Source: Verrucomicrobiota bacterium (GTDB taxonomy: Bacteria; Verrucomicrobiota; Verrucomicrobiia; Opitutales; Cerasicoccaceae). Taken from it: a DNA stretch of 64,000 bases. Every line of letters begins with the position of its first letter. Within the stretch, counting starts at the first letter, position 1. Made by a program: the position numbers. Positions 30,001 through 36,000 of the stretch are shown piece by piece. The DNA is taken from NCBI GenBank assembly GCA_039818205.1, contig JBCBUK010000005.1:232065-296064 (forward strand). The letters are read 5' to 3'.

Positions 30001-33000
30001 CTCCTCCTGCTTTGACCTTTTCTTCCACGACGGGTTCCAACTGCTGAAGCAGGTCCAAATTTTCTTCGGTTAACTCAATCGCATGCCCGGTGAACCCATA
30101 CTCATAGAAATTCAAGGCAACTGAACGAGCCACCATGAGTTGCTGGCTTTGAAACGCATACCAGAGTGCCTCCGCTTCGGCCGAGGCAGCATTCTCCCGG
30201 CTTCCAAGTTTGCCAAACCAAGGAATGGTTTGGCTGAGCATAAACACATTCTCTTGTGGTCCGGTTCGAGTCTGCACGGACTCAACAAAATGGGTGATCT
30301 GAAATCGTGGCTCAGGCAAGGCCGACGCCTGCGGTATCCGTTGCATCGCAGCTTCGTACCGCGCCTCAAATGCCTTAAGTTGAGGATTCGCGGCTTGAGC
30401 TTGCTCTAGGTAGCTTTGCAGATCCGTTGGGCCAGCGTCACTGGATTGAGCATGGGAGGCACAACTCAGCCCAAGGATAAGCGTGAGCGCCAGCGAACAC
30501 TTGAGTCTTTTCTGAGCGTAACTGCGAAGAACCATAACTTGCGTCGTTGTGTCCTAGGACACTCGATAATACCCGTAAACTCAATCCATAGTTTTCGGAT
30601 AATCGTCGAAGCGATTGGAGCCCGCTATGGTTACTCAGAGGTGTCGGCGGGTTTTGCTTTTTCGCTGACGTAATCCAGAACCGCTGCACCAAACGTAAAA
30701 CCACCGCCGAATGCAACCAGAGCAACACGGGCATTGCCGGGCAGATCTTCCCAGTTTTTCGAAAGGCACAATGGAATACTGCTGGATGAGGTGTTGCCGA
30801 AATTCCGGATATTCTCCCAGACCCGCTCCGGGCGACCACTCAGGCGCTTCGCCAAGGCACGACTGATACGTTGATTTGCCTGGTGAGGCACAATCACATC
30901 TAAGTCGTCCATCTCAAGTCCACTGGCAGCACACGCTTGTGTCATCGCATTGGTCATATGGCGGACCGCATCATAAAAGACGCGTTTGCCGCGCATCGCG
31001 GTCGAATCAGGGCTATCGGTCAAGGGAACATTCAAGCTCTCGCCGGACTCCCCAATACCCGAAATAAGCGGCTTGTGCAGACGCAACTCATCACTGAGCT
31101 CGGGCTCACCGGAATCGGCCGAACGCGCACTGATCAGAGTCGCGGTAGCCGCATCGCCAAATAAAAACGCCGTATCGTAATCTTCAAGATCAAGCGTCCG
31201 GGAAAGCACTTCAGTAGTCACCAACAACACATTCCCAGAGCGACCTTCCAAAAAGTCATAAGCGCATTGAAGACCGTATAGATAGCCCGAACATCCCGCG
31301 GAAATATCATAACCCGGGCAGCACTGCTCCGGAGCCAATGCATGTAAGACTCGCATGGCCAGCGAAGGCGTCCCGCGGTCAGGAGTCGTTGTCGAACAAA
31401 TTACCAGATCGATATCCTCCATGGCCACTGGCGTTTTCTCGAGCAGTTGCTCGACGGCTTCTACAGCCAAGCTGAGCGGCGTTTGTTCTGGGGAAGCCCA
31501 ATAGCGGCTCTCGATACCCGTGCGACGGACAATATCGTCGCTGGTTTTTTCTGGGAAGCGCTTGAGCAACTCTTCGTTGCTAACTTCGACGCTACCATGG
31601 GCAATGCCGATAGCGCCCAAACGAACGATTGTGTTCTCATCCGAACGAGGGCCACTTGCCAAGAGCGGTGCGGCATCGTCTGTCGAAATAATATAAGGCT
31701 TCTTCTTTTGATTCTTCGTCGAAGAACGCTCAGTCGTATTAGCCTCAGCGCATCGAATGCGCATGATTGGGTCGCCCACGCTGATTGAAACGCCTTCGTC
31801 GACCGCCAGGGCCTCAACAACACCCTCAAAAGGAGAGACCATTTCGGCGGCAGCTTTATCTGCCTCTATAATCGCGATGTCCTGGTCTACGCTGACCGTG
31901 TCGCCTTCCTTGACCAACCATTCAACAACGGTTACCGAGTCGTCAGAAGCTCCGACGCCCATCGCGGAAATCGTCTCTATATTTGAGCTTTCCACATCAT
32001 CGCTTGCCCAGCCCAGCTGTAAATCCATCAGCTCAGCTGCGGCCTCAATAATGTCGTCGACCGATGGCAAAATCTCCAGCTGGTTGGCCAGGTTGAACGG
32101 CACAAGCGCTTCGGGCCGGGTTACCCGTCGAACGCGGGCAGGCACCGATTCACCTTCAACGACACACGCACAAATTTCGGCGCCCACACCACAAAATCCA
32201 TTGTCCTCGTGAACGACAACCAAGCGCTTCGTCTTGCGAACGGAACTGCGAATCGCGTCTTCATCCCAAGGAGTGATCGAGCGCAAGTCAATGACCTCGG
32301 CGGACACCCCGAGCGCCTCTAATTGTTGAGCCGCCTCTTCGCACAGAGGGACCGTATTGGCCCAACCAACCAAGGTGACATCGTCGCCGCTACGGCATTG
32401 GTGGGCTTTTCCAATTGGCACCCAATAGTTCGCGACGTCTCCGCTCGAAGCCCGCAGCTTGGCGTTAATCAAATTCTTGGGATACAAGATGACCGTCGGA
32501 CGATTCGAAGCCAGGGCTGCGTTAACCATTCCCGCAGCATCGCGCGCGGTGGAGGGCATCACGATATCAACCCCGGGTGAATGCGCCAAAACCGACTCTA
32601 AGGTCTGCGTGTGAAAGGGCCCAGTACCCCCGCGATAACCACCGCAGGAAACCATGATCACCACTGGGCAATTCCATTGCCCGGCTGATCGCCAATACAT
32701 CGAGGCCAGTTCGTTGTGATAAAGGTTCTGAATCAGCGGAAGAAAATCAGCAAACTGAATAAACCCGACTGGCTTGCCGCCGGCCAGAGCTTGCCCAATG
32801 GTGAGCCCCATGATGCTGGCCTCTGCCAGTGGCGCGTTGCGAACCCGGTCCGGGAACGCTTCCGATAGGCCTTGGGTCACCCCAAATACATCGCCTTTGG
32901 GGTCTTCGATGTCCTCGCCCAGAAGCGTAACCGCCTCGTCCTTGCTCATCGCCTGATGCAAGGCTTCGCGCATGGCTGCACGCATCGTCACCCCAATACC

Positions 33001-36000
33001 GTTGGTATCGATTCGACGCCCCTCCTTGGGCTCGGTCTGGTTTACGTAGTCGGCACTGAGTGGTGCCTTGACCTCCAAGGATAAAACTGGATCAGCAGAT
33101 TGTCGGGCCTCGTCGGCCGCGGACTTCACCGCCACCCGGGCACTCTCCTCGATTTCGAGCAACTGATCGTTGTCCACACCGAGATCCAAAAGCTGCTTGC
33201 GAAATTCGATCAGTGGATCACGAAACTTAGCATTCTCGGCCAGAGTATCCGCATTGCGGTAGGCCTGCTGATCATCGGCGTTCGAATGGCTGCCCAAGCG
33301 CTCGACCCGCATCACCGCAATCGCTGGACCACGAGTCGATCGAATCTTGCTGCAGAGGTTGCCAAACTGTTCACGTGAATCGATGACATCGACGCCATCC
33401 CAATAATGAATTGGCACACCGAGGAAGCTTTCCGCCTGCCCATCCGGGAGGGAGAAAAAGGTTTGCCCTCCCGTCGTAGTCGAAAGCGCATAACCATTGT
33501 CCTGGATCAAGAACAACACAGGCAAATTCGCTCGAACCGCCTCACCGACGGCCTCATAAAAATCCCCCTGCTGCACGCCGCCATCGCCAATTGCACAATA
33601 GACCAGCGGAGCACCAGGATCATCTTTGATGCGAGAAGCGACGCCCACGGCAGGCAACAGATTGTTGCCCACCGAAACTGGCATACTCATGACATTCAGC
33701 GCCCGGTCCGAGTGCATCACATTCATGTGCCGCCCTGCCGAACAAGAAGCCTCGTTCGCAAACAGAGAATCAAAGAATGATCGAGGCTCGACCCCGCGAG
33801 CGAGCAAAAGAGCTCGATCGCGGTAGTGACAACCCAGCCAATCGTCCGGAGTCAGAAACTCCGCGAGGGTTGCCGTTGCCTCGTGCCCCGCACTTGCAAT
33901 GTGGAAGTGCCCCTCACCTCGAGCGATGATCTTGCGTTCCTCGGACTCGATTTCGCGTGAGCGGACAAGACAGCCATACAAATCCAGGTACCGTTCCAGT
34001 AGATCAGATCGGCACGAATCCGGGGTGGATTCCGCTAAACGGGTCATGGGTTCAACCGGTCGGTCCTTGAAGACATCCATTCTATCAGACGGCCTGCTTT
34101 TTATACTGCCGGAACTTTCGTTTTTGGGGACGGTGGTTATCGCGTGATTGCCTCATTGGTTTGCCATTTCGTTTTTTCCCACGAGAGGAAGATTTACCCT
34201 TTGGAGCCCGCAAACCAATCAACTTCTCTTCATGGAATTCATGATCACGATGAATGGTAATCTGGGTCTTAATCAGGCGCTCAATAGCACGAAGCTCGCC
34301 AATCTCCTCGGCCGAGCAAAATGAGAAGGCGCAACCTTCAGCACCCCCACGCGCCGTGCGGCCAATCCGATGAACGTAGGCTTCCGGATCGTTTGGTAGA
34401 TCGAAATTAATCACCAGCGTGATGTCTTTCACGTCAATACCGCGAGCAGCAACGTCCGTCGCCACCAAAACTGGTGTCTTGCCGCGGCGGAAATTCTCGA
34501 GTGCACGTTGGCGGGCACGTTGGCTCTTATCGCCGTGAATAGCCTCGGTCCGCACACCTGAACGGTCAATGTGCTTGGCCAAACGCTCGGCACCATGCTT
34601 GGTACGGCTAAAGACCAATGTCAAATTGCGCCCTTCTTTGCCCTTCTGCTCATCAATCAACGACGAGAGCAAGTCCCGCTTATTGTCTTGCTTGAGAAGG
34701 CATAGGCGGTGGTCGACGCTCTCTGCGGTGGTCTTGTCGGGGGCAATCCGAACCTCGGTTGGATTGGAAAGGATTGTACTGGCTAGCCCCTCGACCGTCG
34801 ACGAATAGGTCGCCGAAAAGAAAATCGATTGCCGTTGTTTCGGAAGCTCCTTCACAACTTTGCGAATGTCATGGATAAAGCCCATGTCCAACATGCGGTC
34901 GGCCTCATCCAACACGAAAAACTCGACGCTACCAAAGTCCAAATGCCCTTGGCCAAACAGGTCGAATAGACGGCCAGGCGTTGCAATAAGCACGTCAACC
35001 CCACGGCGAAGCGCTCTAATTTGTGGTCCTGCAGGAACGCCACCGTAAATCGCAGTGGTGCTGATGCGGGAAAATTTCCCGTATTCCCGGAAACTCTGAG
35101 CCACCTGCGCAGCCAGCTCGCGAGTCGGAGTCAGCACCAACGCGCGGAACTGGTTCGGGCTCAGACGCCCTGGATTCTCAATCATTTGATTAAGAATCGG
35201 TAGTGTAAACGCAGCAGTTTTCCCGGTTCCGGTTTGGGCCGAGCCCAACAAATCATGCCCTTCGAGCAGCGGCGGAATGGCCTGCGCCTGAATTGGCGTT
35301 GGCTCGTCGTAGGACTTTTCGGTGAGTGCTCGCTGGAGTGGATCAGCCAAGCCCAGCGCACTAAATTTTTGAATCGTTTCCATGTCTTATTTCCATCCGC
35401 AGGTCTCTTCAAAAATATGCGGATTCTTCGATGATAGTGATTATGCCTAAATCAATCACTCATCGATGGAGACCGTTCAGGATAGGTATTTGCGCAATGC
35501 CGTCAGGACAGCAGAGGAAATACGATTAACTCTCGGAAAATGGACCATTTAACCGCGCACGCAAGAGAAATAGTCGATCACAAGAACCCGGGATAACGGA
35601 TACTCATCAGGAACGTTAAGCCCTCTTCTTCAAAGTTTCTGCGACAATTCGGCCCATCCGTTCACGATAGTGCCGAGAAAACGACCTGACCGGCGCTCAC
35701 TATGGAGAAATCAAATACTCGCAAAATGCTCACAAACAAGATCTTAGGAAACAAAACCAACTAATCGATCAACGACACCATCAGAGCTATTCTCGGCCGA
35801 TGGTGCTAAAGATGTTATTTCATGGATTATTGCCGCGGACCACCTTTCGGAGCTGCTCCGGGGATTGCGAGAAACCTGTCCGAAAGATACGTTGATTCAC
35901 CGCCAAACAGGCAGCTACTCTATTAATAAACCCACACCAGTATGAAACAAACACTCCTTTGCAGCCTCGGTCTATGCCTTGCGGCAACTACATTGTTGGC

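Follow-up and report, generated by a model that had tools for sequence, protein, structure and literature searches.

In Bacillus, Staphylococcus and Listeria, a branched-chain 2-oxoacid dehydrogenase (E1 alpha2beta2, E2 and E3) feeds FabH through acyl-CoA. A second system of interest is found in the tetrahydroisoquinoline antibiotic pathways, in which, as reportedly established about 2012, PDH-like E1/E2 pairs charge a carrier protein with a two-carbon unit taken from the lipoyl arm. We know of no study on single-chain E1ab-lipoyl-E2core proteins, and literature searches returned no paper on the E1-lipoyl-KAS III fusion analyzed here. The gene for this fusion lies in the window, that is, the whole stretch of 64,000 nucleotides that was analyzed.

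Gene architecture, distribution and relatives

The protein P0001 carries the alpha and beta parts of E1 in one chain rather than as separate subunits, followed by a lipoyl domain and a KAS III (FabH) module (Table 1). Translation of the minus strand yielded an intact ORF with an ATG start and zero internal stops. The coordinates, size, six domains and EADKA, AGCSG, PHQAN and FGNTSS motifs given in the preliminary description were all recovered from the ORF list, the Pfam search and the translation. The absence of an E2 core, also claimed there, was confirmed, as neither 2-oxoacid_dh (PF00198) nor E3_binding (PF02817) gave a Pfam match in P0001 at E<=0.01.

Table 1. Positions of the fusion gene, its modules and key codons, and the upstream gene within the window
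Feature	Position	Strand	Basis
Whole gene, E1alpha-E1beta-lipoyl-KAS III fusion (P0001), 1149 aa	30631..34080	-	ORF list and translation
E1 alpha module, E1_dh, residues 47-329	33094..33942	-	Pfam, 113 bits
E1 beta module, Transket_pyr 364-538 and Transketolase_C 557-669	32074..32991	-	Pfam, 98 and 113 bits
Lipoyl domain, Biotin_lipoyl, residues 709-775	31756..31956	-	Pfam, 61.4 bits
Codon of lipoyl-lysine K742 (motif EADKA)	31855-31857	-	Translation
Linker between lipoyl domain and KAS III, residues 776-818	31627..31755	-	No Pfam match
KAS III / FabH module, residues 819-1136	30673..31626	-	NCBIfam NF006829
Codon of KAS III Cys930 (motif AGCSG)	31291-31293	-	
Codon of KAS III His1066 (motif PHQAN)	30883-30885	-	
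Codon of KAS III Asn1096 (motif FGNTSS)	30793-30795	-	
Upstream DEAD-box RNA helicase gene	34085..35383	-	Pfam DEAD and Helicase_C

All six Pfam domains exceed their curated cut-offs, the KAS III matches being ACP_syn_III (residues 924-989, 65.8 bits) and ACP_syn_III_C (residues 1050-1136, 88.7 bits). Over residues 819-1136, the NCBIfam model NF006829 (beta-ketoacyl-ACP synthase 3) scored 256.9 bits, with a cut-off of 249. The linker lies at the position where an E2 carries its PSBD and catalytic core; model confidence was low at residues 780-790 and 800-815.

Among 8000 candidates scored, 1400 matched P0001 at E<=0.001. For the best 120 of these 1400, with lengths of 1096-1166 aa and identities of 46-63%, the same six families were listed in every case (120/120), as had been stated earlier, and the fusion is therefore not a product of chance. 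The six domains were present in 21 of 21 aligned members, while PF00198 or PF02817 was detected in 0 of 21 at E<=0.001. The claimed conservation across Verrucomicrobiota and Planctomycetota was correct, but its phylum scope was too narrow, since Spirochaetota, Proteobacteria, Armatimonadota and others have the gene as well, and locally it was too broad. Only two of the six genomes of the window's own genus carry the gene, and among 45 genomes from the rest of the order, beyond the window's family, it was found in none. Moreover, the fusion-free, near-complete genomes G001, G002 and G005 contain no third E1 or E2 that could compensate. Members of the genus can do without the gene.

Only two E2 cores are encoded in the genome, on contigs C18 and C10. 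The core on C10 adjoins an E3 and an E1 of OGDH type. That on C18 presumably belongs to PDH, although the PDH-type E1 is located not beside it, but on C3. Together with the fusion gene, this PDH-type E1 and the OGDH on C10 make up the three places with E1_dh. A dedicated BCKDH E2, with PSBD and acyltransferase core, was found neither in P0001 nor in the genome beyond these two cores, and the earlier inventory of only two E2 cores and no other BCKDH-type E1 was thus accurate. The genome also encodes a canonical FabH of 334 aa on C11; it had been described as adjacent to plsX, but a DUF3047 gene lies between them. The presence of this FabH and of the PDH and OGDH sets supports the view of the fusion as an extra system.

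The stop codon of the upstream helicase gene is separated from the ATG of the fusion gene by only 4 nt, so co-transcription is possible. The same helicase precedes the fusion in Cerasicoccus arenae (L011) and was not found beside it at five further family loci (L129-L131, L133 and L134); it counts as a neighbour and not as part of the functional unit. No neighbour (ACP, E3, carrier or tailoring gene) was conserved across 68 loci, and the largest shared neighbour cluster, present at 15 of the 68, was lineage-specific. At individual loci, a fatty-acid hydroxylase gene lies upstream of the fusion (3/3 Rhizobiales loci), a PP-binding protein is encoded directly upstream (Tautonia, L087), and a Leu/Val/Glu dehydrogenase is a neighbour (one locus, L049).

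As judged from sequence, the closest relatives of P0001 are single-chain E1ab-lipoyl-E2core proteins. Residues 25-775 are collinear with a 999-aa E1a-E1b-lipoyl-E2core protein from a genome of the same order (35% identity, 411 bits), and the alignment stops at residue 775, the end of the lipoyl domain. Since an E2 core stands at the collinear position in this sibling family, the KAS III would occupy the place of the acyl acceptor. The family comprised 2768 matches among 8000 scored; its database entries bear names such as '2-oxo acid dehydrogenase subunit E2' and 'thiamine pyrophosphate-dependent enzyme'. When E1ab modules from FabH fusions (15) and E2core fusions (17) were compared, the two kinds fell into separate groups (SH-aLRT 97 and 87).

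Further layouts were also observed. Split forms on long contigs comprised lipoyl-FabH and E1b-lipoyl-FabH; lipoyl and FabH were joined in every one seen, and their FabH domains nest within the fusion clade (100). A 530-aa protein with lipoyl, E3_binding/PSBD and FabH domains is encoded in genomes G030 and G052. In G030, a fused E1ab of 690 aa also occurs as an orphan, and no more than two E2 cores are present.

Active-site residues and substrate

In the E1 module, residues G165, G167 and N195 were invariant and D166 nearly invariant among 21 members; G165-D166-G167...N195 is what we recognize as the thiamine-diphosphate motif. H265 (E1 alpha) and H490 (E1 beta) were invariant in 21/21 members and aligned opposite H271alpha and H128beta (1w85_B), respectively, of G. 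stearothermophilus E1p. According to PMC2663715, H271alpha acts in transferring the acetyl group to the lipoyl domain and H128beta is the proton donor in the reaction with lipoate. The retention of both loading histidines fits an E1 competent for lipoyl loading. The lipoyl domain has the DKA lysine of E2-type domains (EADKA), with K742 found in 120 of 125 members and a gap in the remaining five. Candidate E3s (Pyr_redox_dim) were located at four places in the genome and candidate lipoylation enzymes (BPL_LplA_LipB) at two.

The label of a BCKDH (2-oxoisovalerate-type) E1 is tentative: the T. thermophilus branched-chain E1 scored highest for the alpha part (126.6 bits vs 78.1 for PDH E1 alpha), but a pyruvate dehydrogenase entry did for the beta part (202 vs 193 bits). 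The 'bkdA'-type names among the homologues come from a single source. Branched-chain 2-oxoacids are the most likely substrate, with a probability we place slightly above even, and pyruvate or 2-oxobutyrate may tentatively be considered. Passages of PMC10288369 give C14:0 and C18:1w9c as the predominant fatty acids of Cerasicoccaceae, so that a branched-chain product, if made, would not be dominant.

In the KAS III module, C930, H1066 and N1096 aligned with C112, H244 and N274 of E. coli FabH (1hn9), and across 125 members the catalytic Cys, His and Asn were kept in 120, 121 and 120, respectively. R1071, kept in 121/125, corresponds to E. coli Arg249, which we take to be the ACP-docking residue. 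With the triad and the Arg249 equivalent kept, the sequence fits a KAS III competent for condensation with malonyl-ACP.

A marked difference was observed at the CoA-binding site. In E. coli FabH, the adenine of CoA stacks between Trp32 and Arg151, as described in passages of PMC4606726. In the alignment to 1hn9, P0001 has Asp849 at the Trp32 position and Tyr968 at the Arg151 position. Among the 125 members, the Trp32 column contained D97/E15/K9/H1/gap3 and the Arg151 column F85/Y22/L9/P4/I2/A2/V1, with Trp and Arg each in 0/125. The canonical FabH of the same genome has both Trp and Arg (its Trp located by eye from the RTGI motif). Judged from these columns, the CoA-adenine clamp is lost in the fusion KAS III. 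The equivalents are likewise absent from the lipoyl-PSBD-FabH protein, which has Glu and His there (alignment, by eye). The FabH loop GDGAGA reads GDAATA in the fusion (by eye, alignment to 1hn9). Identity between the fusion KAS III and the canonical FabH of the genome is only 34%, and in the tree the fusion family branches off as a clade of its own on a long stem. Pantetheine contacts were largely retained, the Arg36 equivalent in 82 and the Asn247 equivalent in 120 of 125 members; they are needed for ACP too, yet leave room for another mode of CoA binding.

Proposed reaction and competing explanations

We consider it fairly probable that acyl-dihydrolipoyl directly acylates the KAS III cysteine, followed by condensation with malonyl-ACP, and that CoA is bypassed. 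The fused E1 is probably a homodimer that corresponds to alpha2beta2; it would decarboxylate a 2-oxoacid on thiamine diphosphate and reductively acylate the K742 lipoyl-lysine of its own chain. The acyl-dihydrolipoyl arm would then enter the KAS III tunnel, the usual entry of the acyl-CoA pantetheine, and thioester exchange would move the acyl group to Cys930. His1066 and Asn1096 would decarboxylate malonyl-ACP docked by Arg1071, and condensation would yield 3-oxoacyl-ACP for type II fatty-acid synthesis. No acyl-CoA would be made, and the arm would presumably be reoxidized by a free dihydrolipoamide dehydrogenase.

P0001 would accordingly be a self-contained starter module for acyl-chain synthesis, a view that the evidence moderately favours and each chemical step of which we infer. 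The lipoyl-to-KAS III transfer bypassing acyl-CoA had already been put forward in the preliminary description. Four independent sequence-level lines fit it, namely the intact lipoyl-acylation residues of E1, the lost clamp combined with the kept triad and Arg249 equivalent, the E2-core sister family and the lipoyl-PSBD-FabH variant, and nothing found contradicts it; the transfer itself we infer. Counted against direct lipoyl priming were the score of TIGR00747 (fabH; 225.9 bits, under its cut-off of 292.1), the retained pantetheine contacts, the lack of an E3-binding domain for arm reoxidation in P0001 and the 21 members, the lack of a conserved neighbour, the dispensability within the genus, the possibility that lipoyl-PSBD-FabH did not arise separately from the fusion clade, and the Cerasicoccaceae fatty-acid profile, as far as the cited passages describe it.

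An acyltransferase role was also considered, in which the KAS III takes over the task of the E2 core and, without condensation, hands the acyl group from Cys930 to holo-ACP or CoA. The module sits exactly at the position of the sibling family's acyltransferase core, and FabH-fold enzymes limited to acyl transfer exist, ChlB3 (PMC9573744) reportedly being one. This role is nevertheless quite unlikely: nearly all members retain His1066 and Asn1096, which only the decarboxylation of malonyl requires, the best NCBIfam match, above the model's cut-off, is to a KAS III that condenses, and the lost clamp argues against CoA as the acceptor. Even less probable is mere co-localization, with the arm or E1 working with the free PDH/OGDH E2, acyl-CoA still being made and the KAS III taking it up. 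The two E2 cores, the canonical PDH/OGDH sets and the retained pantetheine contacts agree with it; there is, however, no PSBD for docking on an E2 assembly, the Trp32 and Arg151 equivalents are absent in 125/125 members, and lipoyl and FabH remain joined in all split forms seen. The sibling family, moreover, has its own E2 core in cis, which indicates that an acceptor on the same chain can serve this E1-lipoyl module.

The same mechanism might instead, under some conditions only, serve a dedicated carrier protein on which a special lipid or a polyketide-like compound is started, rather than prime the bulk membrane fatty acids. The patchy distribution, the dispensable gene, the canonical FabH kept in G000, G001, G002, G003, G005 and G030, and the lipid-modifying neighbours of some lineages (the Rhizobiales hydroxylase and the PP-binding protein of Tautonia) are consistent with this. 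We regard it as unlikely, given that the 68 loci share no conserved gene for a carrier protein or for tailoring and that the Arg249 equivalent is kept.

Beyond P0001, the chances lean slightly towards a whole class of lipoyl-primed ketosynthases, in which an E1-made dihydrolipoyl thioester acylates a KAS III cysteine directly. The class would have arisen when a ketosynthase took the place of the E2 acyltransferase core, with the E1-lipoyl module in front unchanged. It would include three or more layouts, namely the full fusion, the split forms and a lipoyl-PSBD-FabH on which E1 docks. If this is true, 2-oxoacids enter acyl-chain synthesis without coenzyme A. A ketosynthase in place of the CoA-forming core suggests an undescribed route to start lipid chains independently of this cofactor.

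Comparison with known systems

The E1ab-lipoyl-E2core proteins of Verrucomicrobiota resemble P0001 in having no PSBD match. Their C-terminal module is an acyltransferase core (PF00198), with acyl-CoA as the expected product, whereas P0001 ends in a ketosynthase. In the lipoyl-PSBD-FabH protein, as in P0001, the lipoyl arm is covalently tied to a clamp-less FabH, with an orphan E1 in the genome. In contrast to P0001, its E1 is a separate protein, its PSBD could dock E1 and E3, and its FabH domain forms its own clade, which may have arisen separately from the fusion clade.

With the BCKDH-to-FabH route, P0001 appears to share an E1 of the heterotetramer type that depends on thiamine, together with a lipoyl arm and a KAS III predicted to condense with malonyl-ACP. 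It differs in being one chain without E2 core, PSBD or CoA-adenine clamp, and in the proposed lack of an acyl-CoA step. The solved FabH / KAS III structures (PDB 8vd9, 2ebd and 1hn9) belong to the same fold family (148-163 bits) and share the Cys-His-Asn triad and Arg249 equivalent; unlike them, the KAS III of P0001 sits behind a fused lipoyl domain, with Asp849 and Tyr968 replacing Trp32 and Arg151.

The tetrahydroisoquinoline E1/E2 pairs provide a precedent for acyl-lipoyl delivery to a non-CoA acceptor. In that route, an E2-type core transfers the group and an ACP accepts it, whereas in P0001 the acceptor would be a ketosynthase cysteine.

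Composition of the fusion protein and its KAS III module

The gene of the fusion protein P0001 was found, from the ORF list and its translation, to be a single unbroken reading frame with an ATG start, encoding 1149 aa. Pfam detected neither a 2-oxoacid_dh core (PF00198, the E2 core) nor an E3_binding domain (PF02817, PSBD) in the product. Residues 819-1136 were assigned to the NCBIfam KAS III subfamily NF006829 (256.9 bits, cut-off 249), and against TIGR00747 (fabH) the protein scored 225.9, below the cut-off of 292.1. The linker of about 43 residues (776-818) between the lipoyl domain and KAS III contains no recognisable domain and has low model confidence. 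In the whole-chain AlphaFold model (pLDDT 78.8, pTM 0.61), the domains were folded and the linkers floppy. When residues 695-780 (lipoyl domain) and 815-1149 (KAS III domain) were submitted to complex prediction, the score was 0.00 and the mark 0.32, which counts neither way. Counts in a promoter and terminator scan of 30300-36000 were not above those of shuffles (3 vs 3.0; 9 vs 6.9).

Features of the fusion protein, its surroundings and related proteins (positions in the window, in P0001 residues or in local locus coordinates)
Feature	Sequence	Position	Strand	Remark
P0001 gene	window	30631..34080	(-)	1149 aa
E1_dh	P0001	47-329		Pfam, above curated cut-off
Transket_pyr	P0001	364-538		Pfam, above curated cut-off
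Transketolase_C	P0001	557-669		Pfam, above curated cut-off
Biotin_lipoyl	P0001	709-775		Pfam, above curated cut-off
ACP_syn_III	P0001	924-989		Pfam, above curated cut-off
ACP_syn_III_C	P0001	1050-1136		Pfam, above curated cut-off
E. coli FabH C112	P0001	C930		kept 120/125
E. coli FabH H244	P0001	H1066		kept 121/125
E. coli FabH N274	P0001	N1096		kept 120/125
E. coli FabH N247	P0001	N1069		kept 120/125
E. coli FabH R249	P0001	R1071		kept 121/125
E. coli FabH W32	P0001	D849		Trp 0/125 (D97/E15/K9/H1/gap3)
E. coli FabH R151	P0001	Y968		Arg 0/125 (F85/Y22/L9/P4/I2/A2/V1)
Cus-type heavy-metal efflux set	window	23565-30535	(-)	Pfam; directly downstream of fusion
Urea-carboxylase-like paralogue	window	46528-50118	(+)	~1200 aa
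Amidase	window	50881-52728	(-)	allophanate hydrolase C-terminal domain
Urea-carboxylase-like paralogue	window	52709-56311	(-)	~1200 aa
Type III PKS-like gene	L009	718-1776		contig C11
CMAS-type methyltransferase	L009	1796-2620		contig C11
Divergent KAS III-like gene	L008	733-1770		contig C4
Alpha/beta hydrolase	L008	1757-2644		contig C4
E2core fusion	L112	2427-5426	(-)
E2core fusion	L111	2746-5982	(-)
Lipoyl-PSBD-FabH protein	L106	1801-3390	(+)	530 aa; 60%-identical copy in G052
Orphan fused E1ab	L109	1789-3858	(+)	690 aa; same genome as L106 protein, other contig
E1-lipoyl ORF	L081	1244-3382	(+)	Spirochaetales MAG
Separate KAS III ORF	L081	3387-4424	(+)	346 aa

In the E1 part, H265 and H490 were invariant in the 21-member alignment and aligned with H271alpha and H128beta, respectively, of G. 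stearothermophilus E1p. PMC2663715 attributes to these two residues proton donation in the lipoate reaction and acetyl transfer onto the lipoyl domain. The E1 of P0001 is thus predicted to be equipped for loading the lipoyl arm, whose lysine K742 (EADKA) was present in 120 of 125 members, with a gap in the remaining five.

Residues of the KAS III module were mapped by HMMER alignment onto E. coli FabH (1hn9), in which we take Arg249 to be the ACP-docking residue, and their conservation was counted over 125 members. According to passages of PMC4606726, the adenine of CoA is stacked between Trp32 and Arg151 of FabH, and pantetheine is contacted by Arg36, Asn209 and Asn246. Since equivalents of Trp32 and Arg151 were absent in 125/125 members, this adenine clamp is lost across the family; the tunnel and the Arg249 equivalent are retained. 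The module resembles a condensing enzyme that has lost the use of acyl-CoA. The canonical FabH of the window's own genome carries Arg in the Arg151 column and Trp in its ...SDEWIRTRTGI motif, the latter placed by eye because MAFFT shifted the motif by one.

The preliminary description's statements on the E2 cores, E1_dh genes and canonical FabH of this genome were borne out by the inventory. Two E2 cores were found, one on contig C18 and one on C10 adjoining an OGDH-type E1 and E3, and three E1_dh places: a PDH type on C3, OGDH on C10 and the P0001 gene. The canonical FabH (334 aa) is encoded on C11, which also carries other KAS III-like genes; it had been placed next to plsX, but a DUF3047 gene stands between plsX and fabH. 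Pyr_redox_dim was found at four places and BPL_LplA_LipB at two. Also on C11, a type III PKS-like gene is followed by a CMAS-type methyltransferase, and on C4 a divergent KAS III-like gene is followed by an alpha/beta hydrolase.

Sister architectures

The main new result of the analysis is a set of sister architectures. A PF00198 scan of 61 relatives gave weaker matches within frames of 1005-1104 aa in 10 genomes. By Pfam, two of these proteins, termed E2core fusions, combine E1_dh, Transket_pyr, Transketolase_C, Biotin_lipoyl and the 2-oxoacid_dh core in a single chain, with no E3_binding match. P0001 (25-775) and one of the two E2core fusions (16-771) were collinear at 35% identity (411 bits), the match stopping at the end of the lipoyl domain; against the PDH of the window's own genome, P0001 reached 32% identity and 162 bits with the E1 beta subunit, and 29% identity and 90 bits with E1 alpha. 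The E2core fusion family gave 2768 matches among 8000 proteins scored, and most of the best 120 were about 1000 aa long and came from Verrucomicrobia. Apart from the missing E3, such a protein amounts to a complete 2-oxoacid dehydrogenase in a single chain; the family is large and apparently unstudied. The E1ab modules of 15 FabH fusions were cleanly split from those of 17 E2core fusions in a quick tree (SH-aLRT 97 and 87); as the outgroup, an orphan E1ab, lies on a very long branch, the swap between E2 core and KAS III may have run in either direction.

A third form, a 530-aa lipoyl-PSBD-FabH protein (lipoyl domain 7-76, E3_binding/PSBD 148-182, complete FabH), was found in two other genomes of the order, G030 and G052. 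In G030, a fused E1ab of 690 aa is also encoded as a protein of its own; the E2 cores number only two, and a canonical FabH is present. The FabH part of its lipoyl-PSBD-FabH protein shares 36% identity with that of P0001 and has Glu and His, placed by eye, at the Trp32 and Arg151 positions. The 10 FabH fusions, two lipoyl-PSBD-FabH proteins and 10 E2core fusions showed no overlap among the 61 genomes; since these genomes are kin, the lack of overlap does not amount to a statistical test.

Split forms were also observed on long contigs, namely lipoyl-FabH proteins of 454-515 aa and E1b-lipoyl-FabH proteins of about 630-720 aa, in which lipoyl and FabH stay joined. In the FabH tree, their FabH domains nest within the fusion clade (29 rows, support 100), which is distinct both from the order's 16 canonical FabHs (95) and from the two lipoyl-PSBD-FabH proteins (99). 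The lipoyl-PSBD-FabH protein may or may not be of independent origin, as the quick tree gives no order among the three FabH clades. In a Spirochaetales MAG (locus L081), KAS III has an ORF of its own, which begins 5 nt beyond the E1-lipoyl ORF; the gene may be naturally split there, or the break may be a sequencing frameshift.

Distribution and gene neighbourhood

Relatives of P0001 amounted to 1400 matches among 8000 proteins scored; the best 120 of the 1400 were 1096-1166 aa long with 46-63% identity, and the six families were listed for all of them. In the aligned members, the six domains were present in 21/21 and PF00198 or PF02817 in 0/21. Among species-representative genomes, a relative was encoded in at least 674 of the 695 pattern matches listed. 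The best 80 include Cerasicoccus arenae (63%), Pontiella and Kiritimatiellales, Pirellulaceae, Tautonia, Phycisphaera, Alkalispirochaeta and further spirochaetes, Rhizobium rhizogenes and Rhizobium sp., as well as MAGs labelled Rhodocyclaceae, beta-proteobacteria, Armatimonadota, Sumerlaeia and Syntrophobacteraceae.

Locally, the fusion gene is patchy. Within the window's order (61 genomes, including its own), it was found in 10/16 genomes of the family, 2/6 of the genus and 0/45 outside the family. Of the four genus genomes lacking it, one is only 72% complete. Genus members without the fusion carry no BCKDH instead, and replacement of BCKDH by the fusion was not supported at genus level. The genus can dispense with the fusion gene, whose loss is not compensated for.

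Synteny was sampled at 80 loci from named genomes and MAGs, with 1019 ORFs called and clustered and a full-length relative in 68 loci. No conserved operon partner was found among these 68; the largest neighbour cluster reached 15 loci, all from a single lineage. Of the 128 immediate neighbours, 117 were analysed with Pfam. The remaining 11 were ten more members of an upstream cluster of about 760 aa, represented by L013:6411-8675, and one downstream protein of 769 aa in the truncated locus L044, assigned to that cluster by assumption.

Synteny in these 117 of 128 neighbours was lineage-specific only. According to Pfam, Pontiella-type loci have a PtsP-like protein as neighbour, spirochaetes an aconitase, Pirellulaceae AhpC/TSA-redoxin and BMC shell proteins, three Rhizobiales loci a fatty-acid hydroxylase, Tautonia a PP-binding protein and one Xenococcus MAG a Leu/Val/Glu dehydrogenase. 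In Pirellulaceae/Planctomycetaceae-type loci, the upstream neighbour ends in the AhpC/TSA-redoxin domain in L034, L040, L052, L059 and L063 (about 800 aa long in those three loci in which the contig end leaves it intact), and a tandem BMC shell protein lies downstream of the fusion in L019, L034, L052 and L059. A thiol peroxidase adjoining a lipoyl protein could bear on reoxidation of the lipoyl arm. In Rhizobium/Rhizobiales (L076, L088, L089), the gene immediately upstream, on the strand of the fusion, belongs to the fatty-acid hydroxylase family in 3/3 loci, and in L076 an Asp/Arg beta-hydroxylase family gene lies downstream. The Rhizobiales fusion loci are a lipid-modifying neighbourhood.

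In the window, a DEAD-box helicase gene precedes the P0001 gene with a gap of 4 nt. This adjacency was found only there, in C. arenae (L011) and in L132, whose matches are identical to those of L011; the idea of a helicase-fusion operon as a hint of cold adaptation was dropped, as the adjacency is missing in the five other family loci. The efflux set downstream comprises a TolC-like OEP, a CusB-like fusion protein that carries two metal-binding HMBD domains, and a pump of the AcrB/CusA type with 1266 aa; a sulfatase gene lies near the fusion on the opposite strand. Farther along, two paralogues of urea-carboxylase-like layout (biotin carboxylase, CT_A_B, CT_C_D and biotinyl domains) stand on either side of an amidase.

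Proposed acyl transfer and relation to known systems

A four-step transfer from the lipoyl arm to KAS III is the most economical reading and is somewhat favoured, although we infer all of its chemical steps. E1 would decarboxylate a 2-oxoacid and acylate K742-lipoyl in cis; the arm would enter the KAS III tunnel instead of pantetheine and acylate Cys930; malonyl-ACP would then be decarboxylated and condensed, and the arm would be reoxidised by free E3. Branched-chain 2-oxoacids are the favoured substrate, because T. thermophilus E1b is the best-scoring match of the E1 alpha part, because in G025, the one genome with an E2core fusion that was inspected for this, that fusion adds a third 2-oxoacid dehydrogenase to two ordinary E2 cores, and because an amino-acid dehydrogenase is a neighbour at one locus; PDB ranks alone are insufficient for a call. 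Pyruvate or 2-oxobutyrate may be used instead.

Three points speak against the four-step transfer: P0001 has no E3 docking site, the gene is dispensable within the genus without compensation, and the fatty acids of Cerasicoccaceae are mainly C14:0 and C18:1w9c. This profile is given in passages of PMC10288369, which also report iso-C14:0 at 9.9-23.1% in the related Coraliomargarita. The same chemistry may serve a special lipid instead of bulk fatty acids, which is improbable, though the least so of the three alternatives weighed here. A function of the module as an acyltransferase only is marginally less probable still. The lowest probability was given to a fusion that provides co-localisation only, with acyl-CoA still the intermediate; the loss of the adenine clamp speaks against this reading.

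No description of the fusion was found in the open full-text literature, a scope outside which most subscription-journal papers and non-CC PubMed Central articles fall, nor in passages of PMC8204192 and PMC3875570. Among bacterial fatty-acid initiation routes, PMC10869286 describes acyl-CoA with FabH, malonyl-ACP decarboxylation and FabB-type enzymes. If true, lipoyl-to-ketosynthase transfer would add to these initiation routes and give the lipoyl swinging arm a new task; lipid primers would be linked directly to amino-acid or central 2-oxoacid pools. FabY is a further initiation enzyme of bacterial fatty-acid synthesis. The lipoyl-to-ketosynthase route would be at work in numerous environmental Planctomycetota, Verrucomicrobiota and Spirochaetota, as well as in some Proteobacteria, Rhizobium rhizogenes among them, and a compact single-gene part for branched or odd-chain primers would become available for engineered strains. 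The claim of new chemistry is directly testable with one recombinant protein.

Compared with known systems, P0001 would work like the BCKDH-plus-FabH pathway collapsed into one protein. It does not belong to the BCKDH complex, as it has neither an E2 core nor a PSBD, and it differs from acyl-CoA-dependent FabH in one defining feature, the adenine clamp.
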